From assembly GCA_964483105.1 (NCBI GenBank), contig CAYZZU010000012.1, positions 10,275 to 74,274 on the forward strand: DNA of 64,000 bases. The letters are read 5' to 3'. Under the pieces are notes generated by a model that saw nothing but the letters and a program-made list of their open reading frames with translations, had not been told where the DNA came from and ran no database searches. This stretch comes from an uncultured Nitrospirota bacterium. Lineage in GTDB: Bacteria; CG2-30-53-67. Below are positions 17,499-43,959 of the stretch, in pieces. The translations under genes and the position numbers were made by a program. Each line of letters starts with the position of its first letter. Position 1 is the stretch's first letter.

Positions 17499-17508
17499 CT
17501 CCTTCCAG

Positions 17509-20368: not shown

Positions 20369-20951
20369 GATCTCCCTCCGGATCGTCGAGGCCCCTGTGC
20401 CGGGAAACGGACCGGATCAGTTCGTGGACCTCTTCGGTCATCTGTGTGGTTTCTTGCCGGGAGGGGCGTTTCCCGGCGAACTTGACCAGATCCATCCGGA
20501 GGCAGAGGGACCGGATCTCCGATTGGATTGTCTGCGGGAGCCGGAGTGTGGAGAGATCATGGATCATCTCCTCCGTGGTCCGTTCCAGGGCGCGGACGCG
20601 CAGCCGCCGTTCCAGATAACGCCTCATGATTCCGGATAGGAGTTCATGGTACTGTTTGACCCGCCCCCTTTCGATGAGTCCCATTTTTCCCAGACGGGTC
20701 AATCCCTCGAAGGCCTCTGCCTCAGGCGAGAGAAGAGGAAGATCCGCCGGTTTTCGCCGTTTTCCCCGCTGATTCAGAAAAGAACGGAGTGCAAACACAA
20801 GCATGACCAACAGCAGCAGCCCGAAGACGATCAGGATCGGCAGCCAGAAATTCGCGGCAGGTTGTTCCAGCGGTTTCAGCCCATGGATATCCTTCATGAT
20901 TGGACTACATCCTTTTCTCCCGCAGCCGGAAAAATCGAAGAATGGATTCAA
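20355..20951 (-). CDS. DUF4381-like membrane protein
   Basis: 198 aa with a single TM, located between the DUF58 and batA genes as in bat operons. Its start overlaps the DUF58 gene end, so the true start may be downstream. Confidence 0.45.
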   Translation of the reverse strand: MNPFFDFSGCGRKGCSPIMKDIHGLKPLEQPAANFWLPILIVFGLLLLVMLVFALRSFLNQRGKRRKPADLPLLSPEAEAFEGLTRLGKMGLIERGRVKQYHELLSGIMRRYLERRLRVRALERTTEEMIHDLSTLRLPQTIQSEIRSLCLRMDLVKFAGKRPSRQETTQMTEEVHELIRSVSRHRGLDDPEGDHVAV

Positions 20952-21780
20952 TATACGGCCGGTCGGTGCGGATCTCGATCCGGTCGATCCCCAGGGAGTG
21001 GAAAAGAGTCCGGATTCGATCTTCCCGTTTCCGGATCCAGACCTGATATCCGTTCCGGATTTTCGGATTATTCGTATGGACCAGGAGTGATTCCCCGGTC
21101 TCGGCGTCCCGGAGTTCGAGAAGACCGACCGGAGGAAGCTCCGCTTCTCCCGGGTCCGAGACCGTAATGGCGATCATGTCGTGCCGCCTGCCCGCGATCC
21201 GGAGCGCTCTTTCAAACCCTGCAGCCTGAAAATCGGAGATCAGAAAACAGATCGCCCGCCTGTGCAGAACCCGGTTGATATATTCGAGAGGGGGTGACAG
21301 ATCGGTTCTCTTTCCTTCCGGCCGAAAATTCAGGACCTCTTCGATGACGCGCCAGACGTGGCCCCGTCCCTTCTTCGGAGGGATATATTTCTCCACCTGG
21401 TCGGTAAAGAGGCAGAGTCCCACCTTGTCCTGATTTCTGATCGCGGAAAAGGAGAGCGTGGCCGCGATTTCGGCTGTCACCTCCTTTTTGCTCCGGCAGG
21501 TTCCGAAGAGTCCGGAAGCGGAGACATCGACCAGAAGCATGACCGTCAGTTCCCGTTCTTCCCGGAATCTTTTGATGAAGGGCCTTCCCAGCCGGGCTGT
21601 TACATTCCAGTCGATGGTACGGATGTCATCCCCCGGTTGATATTCCCGCACCTCGGTGAATTCCATTCCATGCCCTTTAAAGGCGGAAAGGTACTGGCCG
21701 GCCAGTACGTTATCCACAAGATGACTGGTTGTAATGTGAATCATCCGGATCTTCCGGATGATTTCCGGATTCAGGGACAT
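20905..21780 (-). CDS. DUF58 domain-containing protein
   Basis: Conserved EF...REY.PGDD..IDW motif of DUF58. It follows moxR. Confidence 0.75.
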   Translation of the reverse strand: MSLNPEIIRKIRMIHITTSHLVDNVLAGQYLSAFKGHGMEFTEVREYQPGDDIRTIDWNVTARLGRPFIKRFREERELTVMLLVDVSASGLFGTCRSKKEVTAEIAATLSFSAIRNQDKVGLCLFTDQVEKYIPPKKGRGHVWRVIEEVLNFRPEGKRTDLSPPLEYINRVLHRRAICFLISDFQAAGFERALRIAGRRHDMIAITVSDPGEAELPPVGLLELRDAETGESLLVHTNNPKIRNGYQVWIRKREDRIRTLFHSLGIDRIEIRTDRPYIESILRFFRLREKRM

Positions 21781-21831
21781 TGCTACCTCTCAACATGGAC
21801 ACGTTGGGATTCCATCAGGGAGTGCCGGTGG

Positions 21832-22818
<987 letters not shown>

Positions 22819-28961: not shown

Positions 28962-29735
28962 TCAAATGTCCACTTGCATCAGATCCCGCGCGATCCGTAT
29001 GGTCCCGGAATAGGTCCGCCTGCATTGCCGGATCAGATCGGCTCCGTCACATTCCGGATAAAGATGGGTCAGGATCAGTGTCTTCGCCCGTCCCTCTTCC
29101 GCCGCCTTTCCCGCTTCGGAGGGGGTCATGTGTCCCCGGCGTTTCTTTTCGTCCGGGAATGAGCATTCGATGAGCGCGAGATCCGCGTTTTTCACCAGCT
29201 CAACCAGGCCGGCACAGAACTCGGTGTCTCCCGAGTAGGCGAGAACCGATCCCGCGGTGCCGGTGATGCGGAAGCCGATACTTTCCGGGGTGTGCAGAAC
29301 CGGGATCGAAGCGATTCTGAAATTCCCGTCCACGATTTCGTTGTGTGCCATTTCATGGATCTCAATGGGGAAATGGGAAGGCAGGATCCAGTCCCCATGG
29401 ACCTGTTGCAGATTTTTCAGGAGGTTGTGTATTCCTTTGCATCCGTAGAGCCGAAGAGGGGTATTCCGGGACGGGGTAATGTACTTCAGGGCAAAAAGCA
29501 GGGAAACCAGTTCAGCGATATGGTCCGGGTGAAGGTGCGTGATCAGGATCGGACCGATCTCTTCAGGGGAGATCCCGAGGGAGTGAAGTTTGGCCAGGGT
29601 TCCCATCCCCAGGTCCATGATCAGGTTCTGTCCTTCCGTCTGGAGGAGATAACCGGGGCCTCCACGGATCGAAGAGGGGAATCCGGTGCCTGAGCCGAGG
29701 ATCGTCAGTTTCACGGCCTTGTTTTTCTCCATCAT
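28962..29735 (-). CDS. MBL-fold metallo-hydrolase
   Basis: HLHPDH metal-binding motif, 257 aa. Confidence 0.65.
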   Translation of the reverse strand: MMEKNKAVKLTILGSGTGFPSSIRGGPGYLLQTEGQNLIMDLGMGTLAKLHSLGISPEEIGPILITHLHPDHIAELVSLLFALKYITPSRNTPLRLYGCKGIHNLLKNLQQVHGDWILPSHFPIEIHEMAHNEIVDGNFRIASIPVLHTPESIGFRITGTAGSVLAYSGDTEFCAGLVELVKNADLALIECSFPDEKKRRGHMTPSEAGKAAEEGRAKTLILTHLYPECDGADLIRQCRRTYSGTIRIARDLMQVDI

Positions 29736-29885: not shown

Positions 29886-30039
29886 CTATCCTGTCGATCC
29901 GGTTCATCCTGTCAAAAAGGTTTGGTTGTGGAGATCGCATCACTCTTCTTGGTTTTTGGTTTGAGGGGGCAAGGAAGAAGGAGAGCGCCGCAGAAGAATG
30001 AAAAAATATTACATGATAATAAAAAAAATAAAAAAACAT

Positions 30040-30068
30040 TTGACAAGCATGACCCGTCGTGGTACGTT
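30040..30068 (+). promoter_or_regulatory. putative sigma-70 promoter of the rpiR-BMC locus (TTGACA-17-TACGTT) preceded by an A/T tract
   Basis: -35 TTGACA at 30040-30045, 17-nt spacer, -10 TACGTT. A strikingly AT-rich tract at 29990-30040 sits upstream of the RpiR gene start. Confidence 0.4.
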
Positions 30069-30085
30069 GATGCAGAGGGGGAGCC

Positions 30086-30970
30086 ATGCGAAAGAAAGTG
30101 AGGAAGAAGCCGGTGCGAGGGGAAGAGGCTTCGGGGTGCCTGGTCCGGATGCGGGGGGTTCTGCCGTCCCTCCACAGGGCGGAGAAAAAAGTGGCGGACT
30201 ACATCCTGTCCCATGCGGGTGAGATCATGCATCTGACCGTCAGTGAGGTGGCCGTGGGCGCAGGCGCTTCGGAGGCCACGGTGGTCCGGTTCTGCAGGAC
30301 GCTGGGGTACCGGGGGTATCAAGATCTCAAACTCAGTCTGGTCCGGGAGTCTGCTCCCGCGGTGAAGAGCATCGATGCGGAGCTTTCGACCTCTGACGAT
30401 GTCTCCACGATCTGCCGGAAGGTCTTTCTGAACAATATCCGGACCCTGGAGGATACTCTGAAGATCCTGGATGTCGGAGAGGTGGAACGTGCCGCGGAAT
30501 GTCTTCTCAAGGCCCGCAAGGTGTTGCTGATCGGTGTGGGAACTTCCTCTCCCTACGTCTATGATGCCTACAACAAGCTCTTTCGGCTGGGGATCGAATG
30601 TGATTGGCAGACCGACAGTCATCTTCAGGTGATGGCGGCATCCCTTCTGAAACGGGGGGATGTGGTGCTGGCGATTTCTCATTCGGGGAGCACCAAAGAC
30701 CCGATTGAGACGGTCGGAATCGCGAAGAAGGCGGGAGCCGTGGCGATCTGCATTACCAACAACTCGCTGTCACCTCTGGCCCAGGCTGCGGATATCCGTC
30801 TGTATACGGCCTCCGGGGAGACCCACTACCGGGCTGAGGCGCTTTCTTCACGGATCGCCCAGGTGAGTATCATCGACGTCCTGCATATGATCCTGGCCCT
30901 CAGGAACACCCGGAGGACGCTTGCGAATATGAAGAAGATAGAGGAGGCAATCGTCATCAAACAATATTGA
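30086..30970 (+). CDS. MurR/RpiR family transcriptional regulator (HTH_6 + SIS)
   Basis: N-terminal HTH and a SIS sugar-phosphate-binding domain. First gene of the BMC locus. Confidence 0.8.
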   Translation: MRKKVRKKPVRGEEASGCLVRMRGVLPSLHRAEKKVADYILSHAGEIMHLTVSEVAVGAGASEATVVRFCRTLGYRGYQDLKLSLVRESAPAVKSIDAELSTSDDVSTICRKVFLNNIRTLEDTLKILDVGEVERAAECLLKARKVLLIGVGTSSPYVYDAYNKLFRLGIECDWQTDSHLQVMAASLLKRGDVVLAISHSGSTKDPIETVGIAKKAGAVAICITNNSLSPLAQAADIRLYTASGETHYRAEALSSRIAQVSIIDVLHMILALRNTRRTLANMKKIEEAIVIKQY

Positions 30971-30999
30971 CGGTTTCGTAAAAAGTCCATCCGCTGCCA

Positions 31000-31644
31000 A
31001 TGATCAGGGGGGCCGGTAGAATGATTGATCTTCGAACCTTTATTTTTATGGATAGCCTGCAGCCGCAGATTGCCTGCTTCATCGGTTCTTCGGCCAAGGG
31101 GTTTCTCCCGCTGTCCGGAGATGCCTCTCTCTTTGTGGAGATCGCGCCGGGGATTGCCATCAACAAGATTACCGATGTGGCCCTGAAGGCGACGCGCGTC
31201 CGTCCCGCTGTTCAGATCGTGGAGCGGGCCTTCGGGGTGCTGGAGGTGCATGCCGAATCTCAGGGGCAGGTGAGGAGGGCCGGGGAAGCCATTCTGAATG
31301 AGTTGGGGTTCCGCGAGGAGGACCGTTTCCGGCCGAAGATCGTTTCGACCCAGATTATCCGGAAGGTGGATGCTCATCAGGCGCAACTGATCAACCGGAA
31401 TCGGAGGGGATCGATGTTGATTCCGGATCAGACCCTTTTCGTGATGGAAACCTGGCCGGCCGGTTATGCCATCTATGCGGCCAACGAAGCGGAGAAGGCG
31501 GCCGAGATCACGATCGTGGAGGTCCGGCCCTTTGGTGCCTACGGACGGATCTATCTCGGTGGCGAAGAGGCCGATATCATGGTCGGAAGCGAGGCTGCGG
31601 TTCGAGCGGTGGAGGAAATATCGGGAACCGAAAAGGAACAATAA
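31000..31644 (+). CDS. BMC-T shell protein (tandem BMC domains, PduB/EutL-like)
   Basis: Two BMC-like segments ([30 protein letters not shown] and [42 protein letters not shown]). An alternative start at 31021 has a better SD. Confidence 0.55.
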
Positions 31645-31646
31645 TC

Positions 31647-31976
31647 ATGCCGCCGGACTCAGGGCGGCAAGCTGCGAAGGAGAGTGTGATGGCTGAGGCG
31701 TTGGGTATGATCGAAACAAAGGGGTTCGCCGCCATGGTGGAGGCCTCCGATGCGATGGTCAAGGCGGCCAAGGTGGAGTTGGTCAGCTACGAGAAGATCG
31801 GAGGCGGCTATGTGACGGCGATCGTACGCGGGGATGTGGCGGCGGTCAAGGCTGCCACCGAGGCGGGCGCGCGGGGCGCCGAAAGGGTCGGTGACCTGGT
31901 GGCGGTCCATGTGATTCCGAGACCGCATGAGAATATCGACCGCACCCTGCCTCTGGGGAGACAGTCTCAGGAGTAA
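31647..31976 (+). CDS. BMC-H shell protein (PduA/EutM-like, PF00936)
   Basis: [58 protein letters not shown] is the canonical BMC domain. Confidence 0.9.
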
Positions 31977-32091
31977 TCCCTGTCACGATGTCTGTAAGGG
32001 GGAGTGCGGGCCCCGCCGGGGCCGAAACGCGCCGTTCGGTCCGGAGCCGGAAACCGGTGAAATGGGAGGTCTTTTTGACCGGGGGGATGTG

Positions 32092-32385
32092 ATGTATTTC
32101 GGGAAGATCGTCGGAACGGTAGTCTCTACGCGGAAAGACAAGGGCCTTGTGGGATTGACCTTGTTCGTTGTGCGGCAGATGGATATGGAAGGGGGGTTTA
32201 CCGGGGCCTATGTTGTGGCCTCCGACTCCGTGGGTGCCGGTGTCGGCGAAGTGGTCCTCTATGCCACCGGGAGTTCGGCCCGGCAGACCGAGGACACCCG
32301 GGACCGGCCCAATGACGCCGTGATCATGGCCATTGTGGATACCTGGGAGGTCGGCGGTCGGACTATCTTCCAGAAGAACGAGTAA
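32092..32385 (+). CDS. BMC-P vertex protein (EutN/CcmL family), paralog 1
   Basis: [16 protein letters not shown]...[12 protein letters not shown] is the EutN/CcmL fold. Start taken at the ATG at 32092 within the longer ORF. Confidence 0.8.
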
Positions 32386-32397
32386 TTCGAGGGATTC

Positions 32398-33852
32398 ATG
32401 CAATGGACTGAAGACCGGATCGCCTCCCTGGTCGACCGGGTGATCATATCGCTGAAAGAAGAGGGGGTTCTTCCCGAGTCTGGGCGGCCGTCTCTCCCGT
32501 CCGGCGGGGAAATCGCCGATTCCGGGGTCGGAGTCTTCCCGGATATGGACACGGCCCTGAAGGCCGCGCAACAGGCCTTTGAGGAATTCAGCCGGATCCC
32601 GATCGAGGCCCGGAAGGGAATCATCCGGGCCATGCGGGAGGCGGCTCTCGGGGAGGCGGTCTCCCTCGCCGAACTGGCCCGGGAGGAGACCGGTCTGGGC
32701 AGGGCCTCCGACAAGGCGGAAAAGAACCGGCTGGTCGCCGAGAAGACCCCGGGGGTGGAGGAGTTGCTTCCGGAGGCTTGGTCCGGCGATCACGGTCTGA
32801 CCCTGACGGAGCGGGCCCCCTTCGGGGTGATCGGGGCCGTCACCCCGGTGACCAATCCCTCCTCCACCATCATCTGCAACAGCATCGGAATGGTGGCGGG
32901 AGGCAATGCCGTGGTGTTCAATCCACATCCCACGGCCCGCAGGACGTCGATCGCCACCCTCACACTCCTGAACCGGGCGATCGCCTCGGCGGGCGGGCCC
33001 GAAACGCTCCTCTGTACGGTGAGACAGCCTACGATCGAGACCGCGGTGGAGTTGATGCATCACCGGGGGATCCGCCTTCTTGTGGTGACCGGAGGTCCGG
33101 GTGTGGTCCGGGCGGCCTTGAACAGCGGGAAAAAAGTGATCGCCGCGGGCCCCGGAAATCCGCCGGTCGTGGTGGACGAAACCGCCGACCTGGCCCGGGC
33201 GGCGCGGGATATTGTTCAGGGGGGATCCTTCGACAACAACCTGGTCTGTATCCTGGAAAAGGTGATTATCGTGGTGGAAGAGGTTGCCGATGAACTGAAA
33301 CGGGAGCTTGGCCGTCATTATGCCGTGGAGGTCCGGGGATCTTCGGCGCGCCGGTTGATCAGGAGAATCATCGCCGAGACCCGGGGGCCGAGAAAACGCG
33401 GTATTCCCGACAAGGCGTTCGTGGGAAAGGATGCCGCCTGGATCCTGCAGGAAGTGCTGGACCGGGAGGTGGATCCGGAGACCCGGATGGTCGTGATCGA
33501 GGTCGACCGGGAGAACCCGCTCGTCTGGACGGAGCAATTGATGCCGGTTCTTCCCCTGGTCCGTGTTCCGAACGTGGAGGAGGCCATCGCCTTCGCGAAA
33601 GAGGTCGAAGAGGGGTGCGGACATACCGCGTCGATGCATTCGAGGAATATCGAAAACCTGAGCCGGATGGCCCGCATGATCAACACCTCGATCTTTGTGA
33701 AGAACGGCCCCACACTGGCCGGTTTGGGCTACGGGGGAGAGGGGTTCACCTCTTTTACCATTGCGAGTCCCACCGGTGAGGGGCTGACCTCGGCGATTCA
33801 TTTTACGCGGAAACGGCGTTGCGTGATCGTTGATTCCTTCCGGATCGTTTGA
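32398..33852 (+). CDS. CoA-acylating aldehyde dehydrogenase (PduP/EutE family) with N-terminal encapsulation-peptide-like helix
   Basis: ALDH fold with the FDNNLVC catalytic-Cys region. N-terminal amphipathic DRIASLVDRVIISLKEEG followed by a Pro/Gly-rich linker. Confidence 0.85.
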   Translation: MQWTEDRIASLVDRVIISLKEEGVLPESGRPSLPSGGEIADSGVGVFPDMDTALKAAQQAFEEFSRIPIEARKGIIRAMREAALGEAVSLAELAREETGLGRASDKAEKNRLVAEKTPGVEELLPEAWSGDHGLTLTERAPFGVIGAVTPVTNPSSTIICNSIGMVAGGNAVVFNPHPTARRTSIATLTLLNRAIASAGGPETLLCTVRQPTIETAVELMHHRGIRLLVVTGGPGVVRAALNSGKKVIAAGPGNPPVVVDETADLARAARDIVQGGSFDNNLVCILEKVIIVVEEVADELKRELGRHYAVEVRGSSARRLIRRIIAETRGPRKRGIPDKAFVGKDAAWILQEVLDREVDPETRMVVIEVDRENPLVWTEQLMPVLPLVRVPNVEEAIAFAKEVEEGCGHTASMHSRNIENLSRMARMINTSIFVKNGPTLAGLGYGGEGFTSFTIASPTGEGLTSAIHFTRKRRCVIVDSFRIV

Positions 33853-33879
33853 ACCGGGAGATCCGAAAGAGGCGTGTTG

Positions 33880-35196
33880 ATGAGTAGTCTGGTCGATCAG
33901 GTCCGGGATGCGGGAGTGGTCGGGGCCGGCGGCGCGGGATTTCCCACGCATGTCAAGATCTCCGGGAACGCGGGGGTTGTGATTGCCAATGGGGCCGAGT
34001 GCGAACCCCTGCTTCGGGTGGACCGGCAGATCATGGACCGGTACGCGGGAGATGTGGTCCGGGGACTTTTACGGGTGATGGAGGCCGTGGGGGCGGGGGA
34101 AGGGGTCATCGCCTTAAAAGAGAAGTACCGTCAGGCGACGGCGTCACTGGAGAAGGAGATCGCGGGGATTTCCGGGGTCCGGCTCCATCTCCTGGAAAAC
34201 TTCTATCCGGCGGGAGATGAACAGGTCCTGATACAACAGGTGACCGGGAAGGTGGTGCCGGAGGGGGGGATTCCTCTCGATGTCGGCGTCCTGGTCCAGA
34301 ATGTTGCGACACTGCGGAATATTGAATGGGCCGCGCGGGGCATCCCGGTCACGGAAAAGATCGTCACGGTGACCGGGGCGGTACCACGCCCCGCGACCGT
34401 CAGCGTTCCGATCGGGACCCCTGTTTCGGAATTGATCCGGGACCGCGGCGGGGCGGAACCGGAGAAGTTCGAGGTGATCCTGGGGGGACCGGTGATGGGG
34501 CGGCTTGCCGGCGTCGACGACACGATCGGCAAGACCACTGGAGCCGTGATTGTACTCCCCGCGGATCATCCGGTGGTGCTTTCCCGGAAAATCAATCTTT
34601 CGGTTCAGGTACGAAGGGCGCGGTCGGTCTGCGACCAGTGTCTCGCCTGCACGGAGAGGTGCCCCCGGTTCCTGCTTGGACACGAAATCGAGCCCCACCG
34701 GATGATGCGCGCCGTAATGCACGACCTGGAGACACCTACCGGGGCGATCACCCAGGCCTATCTCTGCTGCGGCTGTAGGCTCTGCGAGTATGCCTGTCCG
34801 GTTCTGCTTTCGCCGGTCAGTCTTTTCTCCGAGATCCGGAGGAGACTGGCGGAAAAAAAAGTGCTCAATCCACACCGCCGGAAGGACTGCGTTCCTCATG
34901 AATGGATGGAGATGCGCCGGGTTCCGGTGGACCGGCTGCTTCAATCCCTGCATCTTGAGGAATACGACCGGGAGGCACCGCTTTCGGAAGCGGGTTTTCA
35001 GCCCCGGCGGGTGTCGATTTCCCTTCAGCAGCACATCGGGGCTCCGGCCATCCCGGCGGTTGACGAGGGGGATCGCGTCCGGCGGGGGGACCGGATCGCC
35101 GAAATCCCGGAAGGGAGATTGGGGGCGACGCTTCATGCCTCCATCGATGGCACGGTGCGGCGGGTACGGGAACGGATTGTGATTGAGAAGGGGTAG
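33880..35196 (+). CDS. PduS/RnfC-like flavo-iron-sulfur protein (SLBB domain + two 4Fe-4S motifs)
   Basis: GAGGAGFPTHVK NADH/FMN-binding region, then CDQCLACTERCP and CCGCRLCEYACP ferredoxin motifs. GTG at 33874 is an alternative start. Confidence 0.7.
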   Translation: MSSLVDQVRDAGVVGAGGAGFPTHVKISGNAGVVIANGAECEPLLRVDRQIMDRYAGDVVRGLLRVMEAVGAGEGVIALKEKYRQATASLEKEIAGISGVRLHLLENFYPAGDEQVLIQQVTGKVVPEGGIPLDVGVLVQNVATLRNIEWAARGIPVTEKIVTVTGAVPRPATVSVPIGTPVSELIRDRGGAEPEKFEVILGGPVMGRLAGVDDTIGKTTGAVIVLPADHPVVLSRKINLSVQVRRARSVCDQCLACTERCPRFLLGHEIEPHRMMRAVMHDLETPTGAITQAYLCCGCRLCEYACPVLLSPVSLFSEIRRRLAEKKVLNPHRRKDCVPHEWMEMRRVPVDRLLQSLHLEEYDREAPLSEAGFQPRRVSISLQQHIGAPAIPAVDEGDRVRRGDRIAEIPEGRLGATLHASIDGTVRRVRERIVIEKG

Positions 35197-35234
35197 CCCT
35201 TCGGGAGCGGGAAGAGGGTCAAGGTGGAGGGAAG

Positions 35235-35798
35235 ATGAGTCCTGTTGGTTCGGAGCCTGCGCTCGGGCTCATTGAGTTTAACAGCATTGCCCAGGGGATT
35301 CATGCCTCGGACGAGATGATCAAGAAAGCTCCGATCCGGATGATTGAGAGCCGGACCGTCTGTCCGGGGAAGTATATCGCCCTGATTGTGGGTGATGAGG
35401 CCTCGGTAGAGGACTCCGTCCGGATCGGTCTGGAAGTGGGGGGACATTCGGTCGTGGATCAGCTCTTTCTTCCGAATCTCCATCCGCAGGTCACCCCGGC
35501 CATTACGGGGACCACGGAGATCTCCGGGATCATCGCCCTGGGGGTGATCGAGACCTTTTCCGTTGCCGGAGCCGTTCTCTCGGCCGACACAGCCGTCAAG
35601 GCGGCCGGGATCCGGCTGATCGAAATCCGTCTGGCCAACGGCCTCGGTGGTAAGTCCTTTTTCACATTGACCGGAGAGTTGCCTGACGTTCTCGCCGCCG
35701 TTGAGGCGGGAACCGGGATCATCCGGGAGGAGGGTCTCCTCGTGAACCAGGTGGTTTTGCCTAAACCGCATGGGGAGTTGACGAAGTTTCTGGTTTGA
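35235..35798 (+). CDS. BMC-T shell protein, PduT-like (tandem BMC domains, Cys at pore position)
   Basis: Two PF00936 repeats (ALGLIEFNSIAQG... and ALGVIETFSVAGAV...), 187 aa. Cys in RTVCPGKY is reminiscent of the PduT 4Fe-4S ligand. Confidence 0.75.
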   Translation: MSPVGSEPALGLIEFNSIAQGIHASDEMIKKAPIRMIESRTVCPGKYIALIVGDEASVEDSVRIGLEVGGHSVVDQLFLPNLHPQVTPAITGTTEISGIIALGVIETFSVAGAVLSADTAVKAAGIRLIEIRLANGLGGKSFFTLTGELPDVLAAVEAGTGIIREEGLLVNQVVLPKPHGELTKFLV

Positions 35799-35817
35799 GA
35801 ATCAGGAGTCGGGAGCC

Positions 35818-36126
35818 ATGTTCCTTGGCAGGGTGCTGGGCACCGTGGTGGCCACAATGAAGAGTGAGGGACTGGAGGGGGTGAAACTCCTGATCGTTCA
35901 GCCGCTGAATCACAATCTGGATCCGGTCCAAGAGCCGATCGTAGCGGCGGATTCAGTCCAGGCCGGTCCCGGGGAGCTGGTCTTTCTGGAAGACGGGCGG
36001 GAGGCCTCCCTCTGCCTTCCCGTACCTTTTGTCCCCGTGGATGCCTCGGTCATCGGTCATGTGGACCGCGTGAATCTTCCGGGAGGCGTGAGCCCGGCTC
36101 CGCGGGAGGGGGGGCAAAGATGCTGA
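35818..36126 (+). CDS. BMC-P vertex protein (EutN/CcmL family), paralog 2
   Basis: MFLGRVLGTVVATMKSEG...VAADSVQAG is the EutN/CcmL fold. Confidence 0.8.
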   Translation: MFLGRVLGTVVATMKSEGLEGVKLLIVQPLNHNLDPVQEPIVAADSVQAGPGELVFLEDGREASLCLPVPFVPVDASVIGHVDRVNLPGGVSPAPREGGQRC

Positions 36127-36416
36127 TCGGAAGGGTCATCGGGGATATTGTCTCCACGGTCTGCGACACCTCCTTTGAGGGGAAGAAGCTCCTTCTGATT
36201 CAACCTCTGGACCCGGAGGGCGGAGAGTACGGAGATTCCCTGGTTGCGGCCGATTCCGTGCAGGCCGGTCTGGGGGAGACGGTACTCCTCTTATGGGAGG
36301 GCTCCTCGGCCAGGCTCTGTTTCGGGATGGATTCGGCGCCGGTGCGTACCATGGTGGTCGGGGTCATCGATTCGGTGGATCTGGAACCGCTGGAATCCGC
36401 GCTTTCAGGGGAGTAG
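36120..36416 (+). CDS. BMC-P vertex protein (EutN/CcmL family), paralog 3
   Basis: MLIGRVIGDIVSTVCD...VAADSVQAG. Overlaps the previous gene by 7 nt. Confidence 0.8.
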   Translation: MLIGRVIGDIVSTVCDTSFEGKKLLLIQPLDPEGGEYGDSLVAADSVQAGLGETVLLLWEGSSARLCFGMDSAPVRTMVVGVIDSVDLEPLESALSGE

Positions 36417-36421
36417 GGGAT

Positions 36422-37246
36422 ATGGTTGAGCGGAGGAAAACGGAACGGGAATTAAGGCTGGAGATCGTGGAAATCTGCCGGCGGATGTACGAAAAGGATC
36501 TGGTGGCGGCCACGGATGGGAATGTGAGTGTGCGGCTCCGGAAGGACCGGATCCTGGCTACGCCGAGCGGGCTCCACAAGGGAATTCTGAAAGTGGAGGA
36601 CCTGATCGTTACCGACCTGCAGGGACGGAAATGTTCCGGTGAACACAGACCTTCGTCGGAGCTCAGGATGCATCTGAAGGTTTACAGGGAGCGTCCCGAT
36701 GTCTCGGCCGTGATCCACGCCCATCCGCCGGTCAGTACCGCCTTTACCATTGCCGGGGTCTCCCTGGCCCGGTGCATCCTGCCGGAGGTGGTCCTGACCA
36801 TGGGGGGGATTCCGACCACGCAGTATGCCATGCCGACCTCCGAGCAGGGGCCGGAGGTGATCGAGGAGTTTATCGGAAAATGTGACGCCATGCTGCTGGA
36901 CCGGCATGGAACCCTGACCGTGGGCGACTCGCTCCAGGCCGCCTTCCATAAGCTGGAGAAGGTGGAACATGCGGCGAAAATCACCTGGATGGCCCGCCAA
37001 CTGGGGCATGTCCGGACACTGGAACCGAAGGAGATCGGGGATCTGCTGGAAACCCGAGAACGACTTGGTTTAAAAGGCAGGATCTACCACTGTTCCGATT
37101 GCGGGGCCTGCGGAAAGAAGAGAAGGGATGGGAGCGACTGGTCACAGGAGGACCGGGAAAGGAAGAGAGTCGACGAAGAACGGCTGGTTTCCCTGATCCT
37201 GGACCGGGTGAAAAAGGTCCTTTCCCCGGCATCCGGTTCTTCATAA
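36422..37246 (+). CDS. class II aldolase/adducin family protein (fuculose/rhamnulose-1-phosphate aldolase-like) with C-terminal extension
   Basis: Aldolase_II core (HAHP metal-binding His) over ~215 aa. It has a ~60-aa tail with CSDCGACG and an amphipathic EERLVSLILDRVKKVL helix. SD GGGGAG precedes the ATG at 36422. Confidence 0.8.
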   Translation: MVERRKTERELRLEIVEICRRMYEKDLVAATDGNVSVRLRKDRILATPSGLHKGILKVEDLIVTDLQGRKCSGEHRPSSELRMHLKVYRERPDVSAVIHAHPPVSTAFTIAGVSLARCILPEVVLTMGGIPTTQYAMPTSEQGPEVIEEFIGKCDAMLLDRHGTLTVGDSLQAAFHKLEKVEHAAKITWMARQLGHVRTLEPKEIGDLLETRERLGLKGRIYHCSDCGACGKKRRDGSDWSQEDRERKRVDEERLVSLILDRVKKVLSPASGSS

Positions 37247-37594
37247 ACAATGGGTAAAGAAGAACTCCGCAGGAATCCTGATATTTTCGTAATAAACAAA
37301 ACGCATAAAGAGAAAGCCTTATTTTTTTTCTTGAACATCAAGCGGGATCCTGTTATTTTCTGCCGATAGAAGATTTCGGGCGAGCTTCGGGCGGGTTTAA
37401 TTCTTTTTTGTTTTTCCATTACCCTCTGTTTTTTCCGGATCGTGGTTCTTGATTTCTCAAGATTCGTCCCGGGATCGCGACAGGCAGTCCGGATCAGGGA
37501 TTCTGTTTCAAAGAGGAAGATTGCGGCAGGGACCGTCTGGATTCCTCATTCTGCTTCCGTGAAATCCGGATTCATGCCGGAGGAGGATGGAAAG

Positions 37595-38485
37595 ATGCCC
37601 CGGATGGAAGCCGTGGACGCCAAACCTTTCCTGACGGAGTCGGAATTCACCGGTCTCGTCCGAATGATCTCCAAGCGTACCTCTGTTGATTTCCTCAATT
37701 ACAAAAAAAATTTTTTGAAAAGGCGGCTTCATCACCAACTGATGAAGTACCGTCTCTCCTCCTGGGAAGAGTATTCCGAGCTGCTGGCGGAGGGAAGGAT
37801 CGGTTCTCCGGAATTGATCAACGATTTTACGATTCACGTGACCCGCTTCTTTCGCGACCCCGCTCTCTTTGAGTATCTGAACAAACGGGTTTTCCGGCGT
37901 CTCTGGAAGCGACACCTGGCCCGGGGTGACCGGGAATTCCGGATCTGGGTCATGGGGTGTTCGACCGGAGAAGAGGCTTACTCCGTAGCCATTTCGCTCC
38001 TGGAGGCCGTCCGTCCGGATCTCACGCGGGATCCCATCCGTATTTTCGCCACCGATCTGGATGAAAAGGCGATTGAATATGCCCGGCGCGGAGAATATGG
38101 GTCCCAGTGGATATCGGGAGTGAAACCGGAGTTGAGAAAGAGGTATTTCCTTCCCGGATCCAGGGGGAAGGTGGTTCCCCGACTGCGTCGCATGATCCTT
38201 TTCGGCCGGCATGATCTCCTGAGGAATCCCTCGATTCTTCACCTGGATATGGTTTTTTGCAGGAATGTCCTGATCTTTCTGGATCGTTCGATACAGCATT
38301 CGCTCTATATGAAGTTTTATGATTCATTGAAGCCCGGTGGGATCCTGGTGATGGGGAGGGCCGAGTCTCCGACCCCCCATTCCCGTCAGGGAAGGTTCGA
38401 GCCCCTCTCTCTGGCGAACCGTGTTTTCAGAAAACAGGAGGTCCGTACTGATCCGGAGGGGCGAAGAGAGGGGAAAAAACCGTGA
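37595..38485 (+). CDS. cheR: CheR-type protein-glutamate O-methyltransferase
   Basis: CheR N-terminal helical domain plus SAM-binding motif (WVMGCSTGEEAYS). Start chosen at the ATG with SD GGAGGAGG. Stop overlaps the start of the downstream kinase (ATGA). Confidence 0.75.
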   Translation: MPRMEAVDAKPFLTESEFTGLVRMISKRTSVDFLNYKKNFLKRRLHHQLMKYRLSSWEEYSELLAEGRIGSPELINDFTIHVTRFFRDPALFEYLNKRVFRRLWKRHLARGDREFRIWVMGCSTGEEAYSVAISLLEAVRPDLTRDPIRIFATDLDEKAIEYARRGEYGSQWISGVKPELRKRYFLPGSRGKVVPRLRRMILFGRHDLLRNPSILHLDMVFCRNVLIFLDRSIQHSLYMKFYDSLKPGGILVMGRAESPTPHSRQGRFEPLSLANRVFRKQEVRTDPEGRREGKKP

Positions 38486-41400
38486 AGATCCGGAACAAGG
38501 TGATGCTGGGGCTGCTTATTGTCGGGGCAATTCTTTTTGCGAGCTCCCTGGTAGGGATTCACTATTTCCAGGAGGAAAACCGTGCCGACCTGCGACACAG
38601 AGTATACGGGCTGAAACTGGAGAGGGCTCAGGCGCTACACCGTTCCATCGACCGGGCGCTCAGAGCGGTTCACCGTTATTTCATCCTGGGCGACCTCAAG
38701 GGAAAACAACAGTTTTTCAAGTCCTACCGGGAGTTTTCCTCCAGGCTTCGGGGGATTCAGGGGGAGTTGCCCGAGGTGGAGGGGCGGCCCCTTCTGAGAG
38801 AGACCGCGGAGCGGATCCGGAATACCGCGGAGCGGTTTTTCCGGATTGCGAATCCCGTGGAGAGTCCCGAGGCGAAACAGGCCGTGGAGCGGATCGACGC
38901 GCTTACCGGGCAGGTGGACCGGCTCCTGGACGGAATGGCCGCACGATGGCAGGAACAGAAAGAAAAGGCCGTCGAGGCGGAAGCGGTGATGCACCGGCGG
39001 CTTTTTGACTCGATCTGTCTTCTGATTCTTTTCCTGGTCTCCGGGGGGTTCTTCAGCGTTTTTTATTTTTCCAGGCTCATTTCAGGGCCTTTCCGTGACC
39101 TGATGCGCTCGGCTCAGGAAATCGGGAATGGGGATTTCTCCCGGCGTCTGGATGATCAACGGAAGGATGAGTTCGGAATCATGAACCGGACCTTCAATCT
39201 CATGCTGGATGCCGTGGAAGAGAGGGAAAGCGCCCTGCGCGAGAAAAACCGGGCACTGAACGCGGCGATCGAAGAGCTGGCGCGGACGAACGAAAGGATG
39301 CAGCTCAACAACGAAGAACTGGAGTCGACCAATGAGGAACTCCAGATCTCCAGCGAAGAGCTCGAGTCGGCGAACGAAGAGCTGAACCTCTCCAACCAGG
39401 AACTGGAGGTTAAAACGCGTGAACTGATCGAGACACGGGATTTGCTCCAAAAAAAGAATGAGGAGATCAAGAGGGGACATGACTTTCTCGAGACGGTCAT
39501 TAATTCCACCAATAGCGGGATCTGCGTGATCCGGCCTGATTTTACGATCGAGTCCGCAAACCGTGCGATTCAGAAGATGACCGGCTACACCGGGTCGGAG
39601 CTGATCGGTTCATTTTGCTATGAAATGTTCCAGGGAAGATCCGAACCCTGCAGCGATTGTCCGGCGCGAAAGGTCTTTACCGGCGGGGGTGTCCAGAGGG
39701 AACACCATTGCCACGTCACAAAGGACGGACGGGAGATCATCAGTGACATGACCGCCACGCCCCTGTTCGGAAAGGAAGGTCAGGTGGAGAGGGTCATCGA
39801 GACCCTGAACGATGTCACGGAGGTGGTTCACCTGACTCATGCCCTTTCGGAACAGAAGGAGCGGATGCGCTCGATCCTCATGAACATGGGGGAAGGGGTT
39901 TCCGTGATCAATCGTGCCCATGAGATTGAGTTTATCAACGATACCCTGCGGAAACGTTTCGGGGAGATTGAAGGTCAGAAGTGTTACAAGGCCTTTCGGG
40001 GATTGGCGCGCCCCTGTAACGGCAAGGAACCCTGTTCCCTGGTAGAGATCCTGGAGAAGGGACGAAAGCTCTTCGAGGTGACTAAACGGAACGAGGACGG
40101 CCGTTACTATCGTATGACGTCGGTTCCGCTTGCCAATCCGGACGGAACGACCTCCATGATACAGATCCGTCAGGATGTGACCGATGAGAAAAGGCTCGAG
40201 GAGGAGCGGCGGCGATATACGGAGCAACTGGAAGAGCTGAACCGGAGGATGGAAAAGGAGGTTGAAAAAAGGACGCAGGAACTCCTGGATGCCAACACGG
40301 AATTGAGGCTGGCCAATGAACGGCTCCGTGAGGTGAACCGGGAGAAATCCGAATTTATCGATATCGCCGTGCACGATCTCAGGACCCCCTTGACTTCCAT
40401 TGTGAGTTATGCCGATCTTCTGCGGAAATACAAGGATGAACCCGAGGAAACCCGCATGGAGTTCCTCGGGATTATTATCCAGGAGAGTTTCCGGATGACC
40501 CGTCTGATCAATGATTACCTGGACCTCTCCAAGCTTGAATCCGGTTACGTGGATTTCAAGGAAGAAAACGTGGATATGCATGCCCTGCTGGAACAGGTCT
40601 TTCAAACCTTCCAGGTCAGGGCGGACAAGAAACGGGTCCGCCTCGACCTCCGGGTTCCCTCTTCGTTGCCCCGGTTTGTGGGTGATGCCGAGAGACTCAA
40701 GCAGGTCTTTACCAACCTGATCGACAACGCGATCAAGTACACGCCCGCCGGTGGAGAAATCTCCGTGCAAGGGGAGGTAATGGAGAGGCCGGCACGCTTC
40801 CGGTTTACGGTCCGGGACAACGGGATCGGCATTGATGAACAGGGGCAGAAGGTACTCTTCAAGAAATTCGGACGGATCCGGGACCGGAAAATGAAAAAAC
40901 ACCAGGGAAGCGGGCTGGGACTCTCCATCGTCAAGACCATCGTGGAACATTATCGTGGAACGATTCATGTAGAGAGCGGGAAAGGGGAAGGCGCCGCCTT
41001 TTTGATCACGCTGCCCTTGAATCGCGAATCCTTTCAGGTGCGACACGCAAGTTCGGTTGACTCCTCCACGTCGGAGCTGGTCCGCCAGATCGTTCCGATC
41101 TCCCGGGAATATCTGGATCGGAATTTTCTCTGCGCATTCTTCGGCGCGTCACTGGACATCGATCAGATCAAGAAGGCGCTTGCCGGTGAGGGCGTCCCGG
41201 TTTATGATTTCATGGAGAAGGAGCAGTTGATTTTCAGTTCGGCGCGGATCCCTCTGTTTTCCAGGGGAAGATTTGACGGGAATCATCTTTTTGAACGCGT
41301 ACGGAATTTCTATGACCGGGTGGTCCAGTCGGAATGGGAGGGGCTCCTGGTAGTGCGGGATATGACACGACTGTTTTCCGAGAACAAGGTGAGTCGGGAC

Positions 41401-41592
41401 ATTCTGTATTTCGAAAAGAAGCTGGAAGCCTATCTGAGCCGTTTTTCAAAACCGGTGATTCAGATCTGCCATTACGATCCTGTTCCTTTTCCGGAGCCGG
41501 AAATGGAAGGTCTGGAGAAGATCCATCCTTTTCAGTTATTGCACGGGAAGATCGTGCCGCGGAATCATGGCGGGAACCGGCATGGATCATAG
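38482..41592 (+). CDS. multidomain sensor histidine kinase (TM sensor-HAMP-coiled coil-PAS x2/3-HisKA-HATPase-C-terminal MEDS-like domain)
   Basis: Two TM helices flank a ~170-aa periplasmic helical sensor. HAMP, an EELES(T/A)NEEL heptad-repeat coiled coil, PAS domains, H-box HDLRTPL and HATPase N/G boxes. The C-terminal ~280 aa resemble a MEDS domain. Confidence 0.7.
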   Translation: MKIRNKVMLGLLIVGAILFASSLVGIHYFQEENRADLRHRVYGLKLERAQALHRSIDRALRAVHRYFILGDLKGKQQFFKSYREFSSRLRGIQGELPEVEGRPLLRETAERIRNTAERFFRIANPVESPEAKQAVERIDALTGQVDRLLDGMAARWQEQKEKAVEAEAVMHRRLFDSICLLILFLVSGGFFSVFYFSRLISGPFRDLMRSAQEIGNGDFSRRLDDQRKDEFGIMNRTFNLMLDAVEERESALREKNRALNAAIEELARTNERMQLNNEELESTNEELQISSEELESANEELNLSNQELEVKTRELIETRDLLQKKNEEIKRGHDFLETVINSTNSGICVIRPDFTIESANRAIQKMTGYTGSELIGSFCYEMFQGRSEPCSDCPARKVFTGGGVQREHHCHVTKDGREIISDMTATPLFGKEGQVERVIETLNDVTEVVHLTHALSEQKERMRSILMNMGEGVSVINRAHEIEFINDTLRKRFGEIEGQKCYKAFRGLARPCNGKEPCSLVEILEKGRKLFEVTKRNEDGRYYRMTSVPLANPDGTTSMIQIRQDVTDEKRLEEERRRYTEQLEELNRRMEKEVEKRTQELLDANTELRLANERLREVNREKSEFIDIAVHDLRTPLTSIVSYADLLRKYKDEPEETRMEFLGIIIQESFRMTRLINDYLDLSKLESGYVDFKEENVDMHALLEQVFQTFQVRADKKRVRLDLRVPSSLPRFVGDAERLKQVFTNLIDNAIKYTPAGGEISVQGEVMERPARFRFTVRDNGIGIDEQGQKVLFKKFGRIRDRKMKKHQGSGLGLSIVKTIVEHYRGTIHVESGKGEGAAFLITLPLNRESFQVRHASSVDSSTSELVRQIVPISREYLDRNFLCAFFGASLDIDQIKKALAGEGVPVYDFMEKEQLIFSSARIPLFSRGRFDGNHLFERVRNFYDRVVQSEWEGLLVVRDMTRLFSENKVSRDILYFEKKLEAYLSRFSKPVIQICHYDPVPFPEPEMEGLEKIHPFQLLHGKIVPRNHGGNRHGS

Positions 41593-41652
41593 GATCCTCC
41601 AGTCCAGCCGGTTTGACTCGTTTCATGAATCGGGCGGGGTCCGGGGGGTCCT

Positions 41653-43041
41653 ATGAAACCGAAACTTCTGATCGTGGATGACGATGAAGAGATCCTCAAG
41701 CAGCTCAAGTGGGCCTTCAAGGAGGACTTCTCCATCTTCCTGGCCACCGACCGGGAGGCTGCGATTCAGTCCTTTCAACGGCACAGCCCGGATCTTGTCG
41801 CTCTGGATCTCGGACTCTCACCGCACATGGGGGGGGGGAGTGACGATGAAGGGATTGAAATCCTGCGCATGGTTCTGAAACAGGAACCCCTCACCAAGGT
41901 GATCATGATCACGGGGAACGAAATGCGGGAATACGCGATCCGGTCGATTCAGATGGGGGCCTTTGATTATTACTCCAAGCCGATCGATCTGGAAGAATTA
42001 CGCTTCATTCTGAAGCGGGCTCTCCATATCCAGGGACTTGAAAAAGAAAATCTCAGATTGCGAAAGGAGGTTCTCCAGAAGGAACAGTTTGCCGGGATGA
42101 TCGGATGGTCTCCCGCCATCCAGGAAGTCTATCAACAGATCGAAGGGGTGGCCGAAAGCAACGTGACGGTCCTGATCGAAGGGGAGAGTGGAACCGGCAA
42201 GGAACTGGCGGCCAGAGCGGTTCATGAGAGGAGCGGGCGCAGGAAAGCCCCCTTCGTGGTAATCAATTGTGGAGCGATCCCGGAAAACCTTCTGGAGTCC
42301 GAGCTCTTCGGTCATGAAAAGGGGGCCTTTACCGGCGCCGCCGCCACAAAGATCGGGAAATTCGAACAGGCGGACCGGGGGACCCTCTTTCTGGACGAGA
42401 TCGGGGAACTTCCCCTGCAGCTTCAGGTGAAGCTTCTCCGTTTTCTGCAGGACCATCAGATTGAACGGATCGGGGGGCGGCATCCGGTCAAGATCGATGT
42501 CCGGGTTATCGCCGCGACCAACCGCTCCCTGGAGGAAGAAGTGGAAGCGGGACGGTTTCGCAAGGATCTCTATTTCCGGTTGAATGTGGTCCGGATTCAT
42601 CTGCCTCGTCTCAAGGACCGGATCGGGGATCCGATCCTTCTGGCATATTATTTTCTGGACCTGTACCGTGGGGAACTGCAAAGCAAGGTCAATGGTTTCA
42701 CCGCCGAGGCGGAGCTTTCCATCAAGACCGCGGAGTGGGAGGGAAATATCCGGGAACTGGAGAACAGGGTTCGCAAGGCCTTGATCGTTGCGCGCGGACC
42801 CCTGATCACGGAAGTGGATCTGGATCTTGACTATAAAGAAAATGCCGTCCCGCTTTCTCTCAAGGAGGCCCGGGAGGAACTGGACAGGAAGTATATCCAC
42901 CTCGCCCTCCGGAACAACCACGGAAATATCAGCCAGGCCGCCAGGGAACTTGGAATCAGCCGGGTCAGCCTCCATGATCTGATCCGGAAGTATGGAATCA
43001 GGGTGAGGCATGGGGAGAGCAATCAGGAAAGGGGGGTGTAG
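41653..43041 (+). CDS. sigma-54-dependent Fis-family response regulator
   Basis: REC (with a Gly-rich insertion), AAA+ GESGTGKE, GAFTGA and a C-terminal HTH. Confidence 0.8.
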   Translation: MKPKLLIVDDDEEILKQLKWAFKEDFSIFLATDREAAIQSFQRHSPDLVALDLGLSPHMGGGSDDEGIEILRMVLKQEPLTKVIMITGNEMREYAIRSIQMGAFDYYSKPIDLEELRFILKRALHIQGLEKENLRLRKEVLQKEQFAGMIGWSPAIQEVYQQIEGVAESNVTVLIEGESGTGKELAARAVHERSGRRKAPFVVINCGAIPENLLESELFGHEKGAFTGAAATKIGKFEQADRGTLFLDEIGELPLQLQVKLLRFLQDHQIERIGGRHPVKIDVRVIAATNRSLEEEVEAGRFRKDLYFRLNVVRIHLPRLKDRIGDPILLAYYFLDLYRGELQSKVNGFTAEAELSIKTAEWEGNIRELENRVRKALIVARGPLITEVDLDLDYKENAVPLSLKEAREELDRKYIHLALRNNHGNISQAARELGISRVSLHDLIRKYGIRVRHGESNQERGV

Positions 43042-43320
43042 GTTTCCTTTACACACCTAACTGGTTGAATTATTACGAAAAATACTTAATTTGGCATATA
43101 ATCTTCGAAATTGTGTCGGATTTCTTTACATTTCATGATCCGACAGCTCTTGCCCTTTACGGTTTTTCTCTTTCCCTTCTGTGAAAAATAACGATAAATA
43201 TCATGAGGTTGGAAGTATGGTCGAATAAGATGGTATGAAAATTGCTGTTTCTCCACTTCGAGGACAAAACGTTCAGTGAAATGGAAGATTCTAATGTGTT
43301 ATCCTGAAAGAGGTGGCGAA

Positions 43321-43959
43321 ATGTTCAAAAAAGCAATCCTGTTCATGATGATCCTGGGATTTGGGTATCTCCTTCCCGCGTCGAATCTTTATGCCTCTCC
43401 GGTGTTGGGGTATGTGAATCCGGGGTACGGGGATGTCGATCCGGGTTATCAGGCCGCTCACCCGGGTTATCATTACGACCTCGGGAGTTCCACGACCGGC
43501 CTGGCTCTTTACACCTTCGAGAATGTCGCTCCCGGTGCGGGAGAGAACATGGTCGCCCTGTCCCTGGGGTTTGAATCGGATGTATTTGATCTCGCGCTTA
43601 CCGCTCCGGTTGCGGGAAGTGCGAATCCCGGCTGGTCCCTGGACTGGGTCGGGTTCGGACCGGACAAGGCGATCCTTTCCTGGAATTCACCGGGCCTGCC
43701 GGAGGGGGAGCAGCTTTCTTTTCTGGTGGACTATACGCTCCAGGATGACGCCATCAGCCTGGATGACGCGGGAGCCTGGGATGAAGCATCCTCGACGCCT
43801 GGATACTGGCAACAGGGCTTCGGGGTCCGTTATGGGAATGGAATGATCGGAGGAGGTTCCACCGCGCCCGTACCCGAACCCGGGACCTTGCTCCTGCTCG
43901 GCGTCAGCATGGTCAGTTTCGCAGCCTATGGAAGAAAGCGGTTGAACCGATCGAAGTGA
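43321..43959 (+). CDS. PEP-CTERM sorting domain-containing secreted protein
   Basis: Signal peptide, PGY-rich repeats and a C-terminal VPEPGTLLLLG...RKR PEP-CTERM anchor. SD GAGGTGG before the ATG at 43321. Confidence 0.7.
   Translation: MFKKAILFMMILGFGYLLPASNLYASPVLGYVNPGYGDVDPGYQAAHPGYHYDLGSSTTGLALYTFENVAPGAGENMVALSLGFESDVFDLALTAPVAGSANPGWSLDWVGFGPDKAILSWNSPGLPEGEQLSFLVDYTLQDDAISLDDAGAWDEASSTPGYWQQGFGVRYGNGMIGGGSTAPVPEPGTLLLLGVSMVSFAAYGRKRLNRSK

Follow-up and report, generated by a model that had tools for sequence, protein, structure and literature searches.

A compact ten-gene locus, probably a catabolic microcompartment of the HO/SPU5 lineage with an RpiR regulator and a class II aldolase, in an uncultured Nitrospirota bacterium

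Closest described compartments and the ten-gene locus

The described bacterial microcompartments (BMCs) closest to the locus reported here, which lies at positions 30086-37246 on the forward strand of a 64,000-nucleotide stretch (henceforth called the window) of an uncultured Nitrospirota bacterium (contig CAYZZU010000012.1, positions 10,275 to 74,274; GenBank assembly GCA_964483105.1), are the sugar-phosphate utilisation (SPU) type SPU5 and the HO type. According to the feature descriptions in the catalogue of Sutter 2021 (Nat Commun, Supplementary Data 2), SPU5 (8 loci) always carries an aldehyde dehydrogenase (AldDH) with an N-terminal encapsulation peptide (EP), has no pfam02502 gene, and has pfam01791 in half of its loci; 5 of the 8 encode a pfam00596 aldolase that bears an EP at its C-terminus. 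The shell genes listed for the type comprise a triplet of BMC-P, a single BMC-H of the standard kind and a BMC-Ts that is associated with PduS and has a Cys motif in its pore; a BMC-Tdp belonging to the CsoS1D clade is given for half of the loci. The hosts named there are Proteobacteria, including Deltaproteobacteria, and one Chloroflexi, and the SPU5 AldDH is placed closest to that of HO (Sutter 2021). For HO, the catalogue describes mostly deltaproteobacterial hosts, an AldDH with an N-terminal EP, a shell set of one BMC-H along with three BMC-P and two BMC-Tdp plus one BMC-Ts, and a block of two BMC-P genes with a pfam00596 aldolase, which stands apart as a satellite in type I and within the main locus in type II. 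A few genomes are listed with PduS/T pairs, some have EP-bearing DERA genes far from the locus, and the catalogue terms the function enigmatic (Sutter 2021).

From its gene content, we consider it probable that the locus in the window encodes a catabolic BMC (metabolosome) of the HO/SPU5 lineage, which would be switched by an RpiR regulator and in which a class II aldolase, a CoA-acylating AldDH and a metabolosome NADH dehydrogenase (MNdh) would act together. The locus comprises ten co-oriented genes with gaps of -7 to 115 bp, each preceded by a G-rich ribosome-binding stretch, in the order RpiR, BMC-Tdp, BMC-H, BMC-P1, AldDH, PduS-like, PduT-like BMC-T, BMC-P2, BMC-P3 and class II aldolase:

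30086..30970, forward strand: RpiR/MurR-family regulator with HTH_6 and SIS phosphosugar-binding domain, 294 aa (Pfam HTH_6 8e-21, SIS 1e-18)
31021..31644, forward strand: BMC-Tdp, double-stacking tandem-domain trimer (CsoS1D/CcmP-like), 207 aa (Pfam BMC 1.8e-6; alternative start 31000)
31689..31976, forward strand: BMC-H, the sole hexamer shell protein, 95 aa (Pfam BMC 1e-29)
32092..32385, forward strand: BMC-P1, pentamer vertex protein, 97 aa (Pfam EutN_CcmL 1e-27, profile beginning at Met 32092)
32398..33852, forward strand: CoA-acylating AldDH of the EutE/PduP type, 484 aa (Pfam Aldedh (PF00171) 7e-38; NCBIfam PRK15398 644 bits versus a cutoff of 403)
33880..35196, forward strand: PduS homologue (MNdh), 438 aa (Pfam Complex1_51K 2e-45, SLBB, Fer4_17, RnfC_N; alternative GTG start 33874)
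35235..35798, forward strand: PduT-like BMC-T^SE, single-layer tandem trimer with a CPGK Fe-S pore motif at residue 43, 187 aa (Pfam BMC 4.5e-40, two domains)
35818..36126, forward strand: BMC-P2, second pentamer paralogue, 102 aa (Pfam EutN_CcmL 3.6e-25)
36120..36416, forward strand: BMC-P3, third pentamer paralogue, 98 aa, overlapping BMC-P2 by 7 nt (Pfam EutN_CcmL 8.5e-25)
36422..37246, forward strand: class II (FucA-superfamily) aldolase, 274 aa (Pfam Aldolase_II (PF00596) 7e-49; core residues 1-215)

All ten proteins passed the Pfam thresholds, and the ten gene identities proposed in an earlier note on this DNA were borne out by Pfam and NCBIfam, among them the attachment of a phosphosugar-type RpiR regulator (HTH_6 plus SIS) to the locus. 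Profile hidden Markov model (HMM) searches for the shell proteins, as proposed there, placed three PF00936 and three PF03319 proteins, all clustered, above the Pfam gathering scores. The claims of that note that shell plus acylating AldDH mark a catabolic metabolosome locus, that the class II aldolase is its signature enzyme, for which the locus holds no other candidate, and that the layout is unlike Pdu, Eut or GRM also stood. Its open reading frames (ORFs) were correct in identity and too long in four cases, namely BMC-Tdp, BMC-H, BMC-P1 and the aldolase, for which the likely starts are 31021, 31689, 32092 and 36422, respectively; these match independent gene calls on the source contig, with the exception that one call puts BMC-P1 at 32062, 30 bases earlier. 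Long antisense ORFs over the locus are the usual by-product of coding DNA with 61% GC.

Compared with SPU5, the locus has every feature listed in the catalogue's description of that type and has them without a satellite, i.e., an AldDH with a predicted EP, no RpiB, an aldolase with a putative C-terminal EP, the BMC-P triplet, the BMC-H, PduS with a Cys-pore BMC-Ts, and the BMC-Tdp. It differs in that the SPU5 description makes no mention of an RpiR regulator and in that the window sequences are divergent (nearest AldDH 63% identical). HO type II is very close as well: BMC-P2, BMC-P3 and the aldolase are contiguous at 35818-37246 and, as type II has it, belong to the main locus, and the best Protein Data Bank (PDB) matches of BMC-H, BMC-P1 and BMC-Tdp are HO-5815, the HO BMC-P and HO-5816, i.e., components of the HO shell 5V74. 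The earlier note had spoken of an undescribed or poorly described BMC subtype. Novelty fails because the locus, by its listed features, matches an already typed class, which that note had itself named as an outcome that would speak against it; SPU5 agrees feature by feature, HO type II very closely, and the gene order recurs in other contigs. "Poorly described" holds, in that a substrate has been established by experiment for none of the SPU5 and HO loci.

A complete shell set is encoded, as far as the sequence tells, with one BMC-H, three divergent BMC-P, one BMC-Tdp and one Fe-S-type BMC-T. BMC-H, whose best natural PDB match was HO-5815 (4e-43, versus about 1e-34 for EutM/PduA), carries the interface motifs DAMVKAA and IPRPH, and BMC-P1 was best matched by the BMC-P of the HO shell (5v74, 5e-30; runner-up 7e-19), which we take to be Hoch_5814. 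The three BMC-P paralogues are mutually 35-45% identical (P2-P1 35%, P2-P3 45%). The identity of each to its positional counterparts in other loci reaches 52-66% (65% for P2), which makes these counterparts closer than the paralogues within the locus, as expected of an old triplet. The PduT-like BMC-T^SE gave 3nwg (5e-54) and PduT as best PDB matches, with HO-T1 at about 1e-27 to 1e-28. BMC-Tdp matched the NCBIfam CcmP-like model at 9e-91, which is under the model cutoff, and has a CsoS1D_N match on record; its best PDB match was HO-5816 of Haliangium (HO-T2, 2.7e-79), followed by CcmP (6e-77), and HO-5816 is labelled S1D-like in the catalogue entry (Sutter 2021).

Enzymes, putative targeting helices and proposed mechanism

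The AldDH carries the motif FDNNLVC at residue 278, and its N-terminus consists of an amphipathic helix (DRIASLVDRVIISL, residues 6-19, hydrophobic moment 0.64) followed by a Pro/Gly-rich linker, with the enzyme domain starting at about residue 45. The same helix-linker N-terminus was found in most of the full-length top AldDH homologues inspected, and we infer that the helix is an EP.

The PduS homologue is encoded 38 bp upstream of the BMC-T^SE gene and combines an FMN/NADH domain, an SLBB domain, two CxxCxxCxxxC motifs (residues 251 and 296), and a permuted C-terminal RnfC_N domain (375-437). The described MNdh/BMC-T^SE electron-export module pairs a four-domain PduS homologue with a BMC-Ts bearing CP(G/S)K (Sutter et al. 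2024, PNAS; PMC11626177). The pair in the window has the same PF01512, PF10531, 4Fe-4S dicluster and C-terminal PF13375 and an adjoining tandem BMC-T with CPGK, stands likewise beside an AldDH without an alcohol dehydrogenase, and differs in nothing that was detected at the sequence level. Of 20 related loci with PduS, 18 had CP[GS]K, and of 40 related loci without PduS, 30 lacked the motif.

Beyond its core, the aldolase has a tail composed of the motif CSDCGAC (residues 224-230; window positions 37091-37111), a disordered linker and, at the C-terminus, an amphipathic helix (ERLVSLILDRVKKVL). In the AlphaFold2 model (predicted local distance difference test (pLDDT) score 85.9 overall), residues 216-241 are disordered and residues 242-267 form the helix, which is a putative EP. 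The positions aligned to E73, H92, H94 and H155 of E. coli FucA, which we take to be the active-site Glu (E73) and the metal ligands (the three His), are invariant, as are the phosphate-binding GN and PSSE motifs. A CxxCGxC-type motif is common to the BMC-linked aldolases (homologues P0122-P0176), with one Cys invariant in 40 sequences, and absent from the free homologues of 215 aa; it may hold a metal or an Fe-S cluster or serve for docking, and it goes unmentioned in the available catalogue text of Sutter 2021. The tail occurs in the aldolases of RpiR- and PduS-linked BMC loci, and the DERA-type SPU loci L032 and L033 have a short tail only. The closest tail-bearing aldolases (57-58% identical; L008, L009, L010) have no shell genes beside them and follow a conserved ExbB/MotA-ExbD-aldolase order; this context was considered as a clue to the substrate and rejected as uninformative. 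One of these contigs shares a metagenome with a small locus consisting of BMC-H, BMC-P and AldDH (L005), which suggests fragmented BMC gene sets.

Searches with tblastn and Pfam between 1.2 and 62 kb of the window retrieved no gene of PF06130, PF00465, PF01791 or PF02502, i.e., no PduL-type phosphotransacylase, alcohol dehydrogenase, DERA or RpiB. In the mechanism that we propose, RpiR would switch the locus on, responding to a phosphosugar via its SIS domain, and the terminal helices, acting as EPs, would load aldolase and AldDH into the shell. A phosphorylated ketose would enter, perhaps via the pore of BMC-Tdp, which as a gated trimer would admit a bulky phosphorylated substrate or cofactors, and the aldolase would cleave it to dihydroxyacetone phosphate and a short aldehyde. 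The AldDH would trap the aldehyde as acyl-CoA under reduction of NAD+ to NADH, and MNdh would re-oxidise the NADH and pass the electrons through the [4Fe-4S] site of BMC-T^SE to a cytoplasmic acceptor, so that no alcohol dehydrogenase would be needed. As no phosphotransacylase gene lies nearby, the acyl-CoA would either exit the shell or have its CoA recycled by the product of a gene elsewhere. The probable task of the organelle thus sketched is to cleave a phosphorylated sugar and to render the aldehyde formed from it harmless; the sequence neither favours nor disfavours the lactaldehyde or glycolaldehyde that the earlier note had suggested.

Related loci and the regulator-aldolase pair

For comparison of the gene backbone (not for taxonomy), contigs were scanned with the AldDH as anchor, which yielded the 80 nearest reference loci, mainly SPU loci from Chloroflexota, Planctomycetota, Spirochaetota and Bacteroidota. 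This single scan of 80 loci retrieved no Deltaproteobacteria and no RpiR-linked locus. The nearest AldDHs, 52-63% identical, stand in small H-P-AldDH loci or in SPU loci, the backbone of the latter being Tdp-H-P-AldDH-[PduS]-Ts-P-P-[aldolase], and a locus without DERA, H-P-AldDH-PduS-PduT-P-P-aldolase, was found in a metagenome-assembled genome of the Planctomycetota (L057). Identity to the nearest relative does not exceed about 60-65% for any of the ten proteins except BMC-H (up to 90%) and BMC-Tdp (up to 74%).

The regulator was best matched by the NCBIfam models MurR/RpiR and AlsR, every one of them under its equivalog cutoff, and its homologues with at least 49% identity sit immediately 5' of the same BMC gene set or of a free class II aldolase; the best of them (61%) has BMC-Tdp next in line. 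The metagenome scan gave about 43 loci whose RpiR was at least 49% identical; Tdp-H-P-AldDH follows the regulator in 21 of these. Nine RpiR-anchored contigs reach the aldolase gene (one ends inside it), and all nine follow AldDH-(PduS)-Ts with P-P-aldolase, PduS being present in five and the order being the same without it in four; no separate BMC-P3 match was obtained in L112, L113 and L135. The ten-gene order, RpiR included, is identical in at least four other metagenome contigs, and one contig with this identical order (L093) is, we presume, from Loki's Castle sediment, SDBU01 being listed in papers on deep-sea sediments. Because the same RpiR-BMC order recurs across metagenome contigs, the ten-gene architecture including RpiR is, on this comparison of gene orders, a recurrent and conserved locus type and not a one-off. 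The window belongs to an 83-kb contig of IMG metagenome 3300009408, which was sampled from iron-oxidising mats of Lo'ihi Seamount (PMC5520029), and the same locus is also present in IMG 3300023503 and in SRA run SRR5189948. The 37 loci with a more distant RpiR showed neither the RpiR-BMC nor the RpiR-aldolase arrangement.

In 18 loci (L106, L107, L110, L115, L117, L119, L121-L130, L132 and L134), a class II aldolase gene stands immediately 3' of the RpiR gene, and no shell or AldDH genes were found within the flanks of these pairs. Order and orientation are the same as for the two genes in the window, with 49-55% identity for RpiR and 45-54% for the aldolase, and the difference lies in the aldolases themselves: those of the free pairs are mostly about 215 aa long and end after the core, without Cys motif or terminal helix, with L107 keeping a similar tail. 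Around the free pairs lie housekeeping genes (CCA-adding enzyme, RadA, glycosyltransferases) and also genes for ankyrin proteins; as no sugar kinase, isomerase or transporter was found in these neighbourhoods, no pathway can be derived from the free pairs. The free pair looks like an un-encapsulated ancestor or sibling of the BMC locus, and the encapsulated form of the aldolase alone would have gained the Cys motif and the targeting helix. What appears modestly new is that RpiR and aldolase would form a unit existing with and without the compartment, and its occurrence with and without a shell suggests that the RpiR sub-lineage has the class II aldolase for its signature enzyme and not DERA.

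Weighing of the assignment and neighbouring features

Several points weigh against the assignment of the locus to the HO/SPU5 lineage and against the mechanism proposed for it. The filing under SPU5 was made by the catalogue's feature descriptions and not by its HMMs (BMC Caller), and the locus may belong to SPU5, to HO type II or to an unnamed sister group. The AldDH comparison used untyped relatives only, without typed SPU5 or HO sequences; in the neighbour-joining tree of these untyped neighbours, the window AldDH, at most 63% identical to any relative found, stands alone on a long branch beside the SPU/mini-locus group. Compared with the HO shell set, the BMC-Ts of the window is of the PduT/Fe-S type beside PduS and not HO-T1, which is without the pore Cys, and the second BMC-Tdp of HO, of the CcmP clade, was not found in the window. 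The enzyme absences cover 64 kb, and DERA, phosphotransacylase and further shell genes may lie elsewhere in the genome. For the aldolase, the best NCBIfam FucA models scored 82-114 bits versus cutoffs of 250-400, the position of FucA Tyr113 is occupied by Leu, followed by an invariant Pro-Glu, and the protein is equidistant (28-31% identity) from FucA, from YgbL, an aldolase/epimerase/decarboxylase-like protein among the nearest folds, and from the B. thuringiensis aldolase 6btd/6btg (Foldseek), presumably the 5-deoxyribulose-1-P aldolase DrdA. Neither the PDB sequence search nor Foldseek discriminated between the specificities of these three. The aldolase activity itself is therefore something that we infer, because no equivalog cutoff was reached, FucA, YgbL and 6btd/6btg are equally distant, and Tyr113 is replaced by Leu.

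Among the other readings, the one that fares best would make the RpiR-aldolase BMC loci a functionally separate metabolosome that has been lumped under SPU5/HO, with the aldolase as signature enzyme, another phosphosugar as substrate, a cassette insertion in its history, a new Cys element, and respiration as the destination of its electrons; we regard this as possible, though doubtful. The substrate may then be, for example, 5-deoxy- or 5-methylthio-ribulose-1-P, i.e., by-products of S-adenosylmethionine, or D-ribulose-1-P, and not fuculose-1-P, rhamnulose-1-P or deoxyribose-5-P. In this separate metabolosome, the shell/AldDH/MNdh cassette may have been inserted between the members of a pre-existing regulator-aldolase pair, and the CxxCGxC motif gained by the encapsulated aldolases may be a new metal, Fe-S or shell-docking element. 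If true, and if the host is an anaerobic respirer, MNdh and BMC-T^SE would feed electrons into respiration.

That the compartment is an SPU compartment in the strict sense is unlikely. The 80 nearest AldDH reference loci speak for it in so far as DeoC and/or RpiB stand just 5' of the same shell/AldDH backbone in 63 of them, and DERA and a terminal class II aldolase occur together in L023, L032, L033 and L045; an accessory role is proposed in PMC11585597, and the catalogue's account of EP-bearing DERA at distant sites in some HO genomes would accommodate a DERA remote from the locus (Sutter 2021). However, neither DeoC nor RpiB was found within the 64 kb of the window or in any of the nine RpiR-anchored loci reaching the aldolase (at most 10 kb to either side of RpiR), half of the SPU5 loci are described as lacking DERA (Sutter 2021), and the RpiR-aldolase pair is conserved even without BMC genes, which argues for the aldolase as the primary regulated enzyme. 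SPU in the sense of Dwyer et al. 2024 is defined by DERA (pfam01791) plus AldDH, and the 64-kb window holds no DeoC; because this definition requires DERA, we filed the locus as SPU5/HO type II-like and not as SPU.

A PVM or PVM-like compartment, as the earlier note had proposed, would convert L-fuculose-1-P or L-rhamnulose-1-P via lactaldehyde to lactyl-CoA, and it shares with the locus a class II FucA-superfamily aldolase making an aldehyde and several BMC-P genes, of which the window has three (Erbilgin 2014; Axen 2014). PVM loci are described as having no BMC-T and as carrying a DeoR regulator, an acetate kinase and a lactate/malate dehydrogenase-family gene (Axen 2014), whereas the window has two BMC-T genes (BMC-Tdp and BMC-T^SE) and RpiR and none of these PVM accessory genes, nor a fucose or rhamnose isomerase, kinase or transporter. 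BMC-H, BMC-P1, BMC-Tdp and AldDH moreover group with HO/SPU relatives, the nearest AldDHs being in SPU or H-P-AldDH loci, and the aldolase is about 28-30% identical to FucA, with the Tyr113 position changed. The PVM descriptions thus set the locus apart, and we consider this reading highly improbable; it is PVM family membership alone that is disfavoured, and a deoxy-ketose phosphate substrate is compatible with the locus. Equally remote is the reading as a BMC type that is truly new and missing from the published catalogue, for which the lack of RpiR in all 80 AldDH-anchored reference loci, the long branch of the AldDH and the identities of at most about 60-65% to nearest relatives (BMC-H and BMC-Tdp excepted) could be adduced, but the component list fits the catalogued descriptions of SPU5 and HO type II, the RpiR architecture is common in metagenomes, and BMC types are not defined by regulators.

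On the preferred assignment to the HO/SPU5 lineage, the locus leaves the current picture of BMC diversity unchanged and is a further example of a catalogued type, not a new kind. The HO shell is in wide use as an engineering chassis, and HO/SPU5 compartments are widespread in sediments. With a regulator, a full shell set and three enzymes and without satellites in 64 kb, the locus is compact and self-contained, and these properties together with the shell-free RpiR-aldolase counterpart make it a convenient minimal system, which could serve for identification of the substrate, for tests of the EPs, and for tests of the proposed electron export through the shell.

Upstream of the first gene, one further feature was read by eye:

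29995..30085, forward strand: AT-rich upstream region with a possible sigma-70-type promoter for rpiR (TTGACA at 30040-30045, TACGTT 17 nt downstream)

This TTGACA/TACGTT pair is a possible candidate for the rpiR promoter; it was not listed by a consensus promoter scan, and scans of the window for promoters, terminators and inverted repeats gave no signal over background. The GC content of the locus is 61.2%, versus 55.9% for the whole window, with bins of 62-63% between 32 and 36 kb, and the higher value may be a sign of horizontal acquisition.

A gene for a metallo-beta-lactamase (MBL)-fold protein precedes rpiR on the minus strand (28962-29735), and directly downstream of the locus (37442-43959) come genes for a CheR methyltransferase, for a HAMP/PAS/HisKA kinase of 1036 aa that has a MEDS domain at its C-terminus, for a sigma-54 response regulator and for a PEP-CTERM-domain protein, none of them conserved beside related BMC loci. 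The MBL-fold, glutaredoxin, CheR, MEDS kinase and sigma-54 regulator genes of the flanks were considered as parts of the system and rejected because they are not conserved beside related loci. The MBL-fold gene of the window gave no tblastn match at E<=1e-8 to the genes inserted in two Chloroflexota SPU loci (L006 8392-9623, L007 8251-9488), in which an inorganic pyrophosphatase and an MBL-fold hydrolase lie between BMC-H and BMC-P. Farther upstream, the genomic context given in the earlier note is in place, with the ATP-sulfurylase gene sat at window positions 5-1189 and pilB/pilT/pilC plus pilS/pilR at about 3.4-10.9 kb, and a MoxR-DUF58-VWA-BatA/BatD cluster lies at about 13800-22800.

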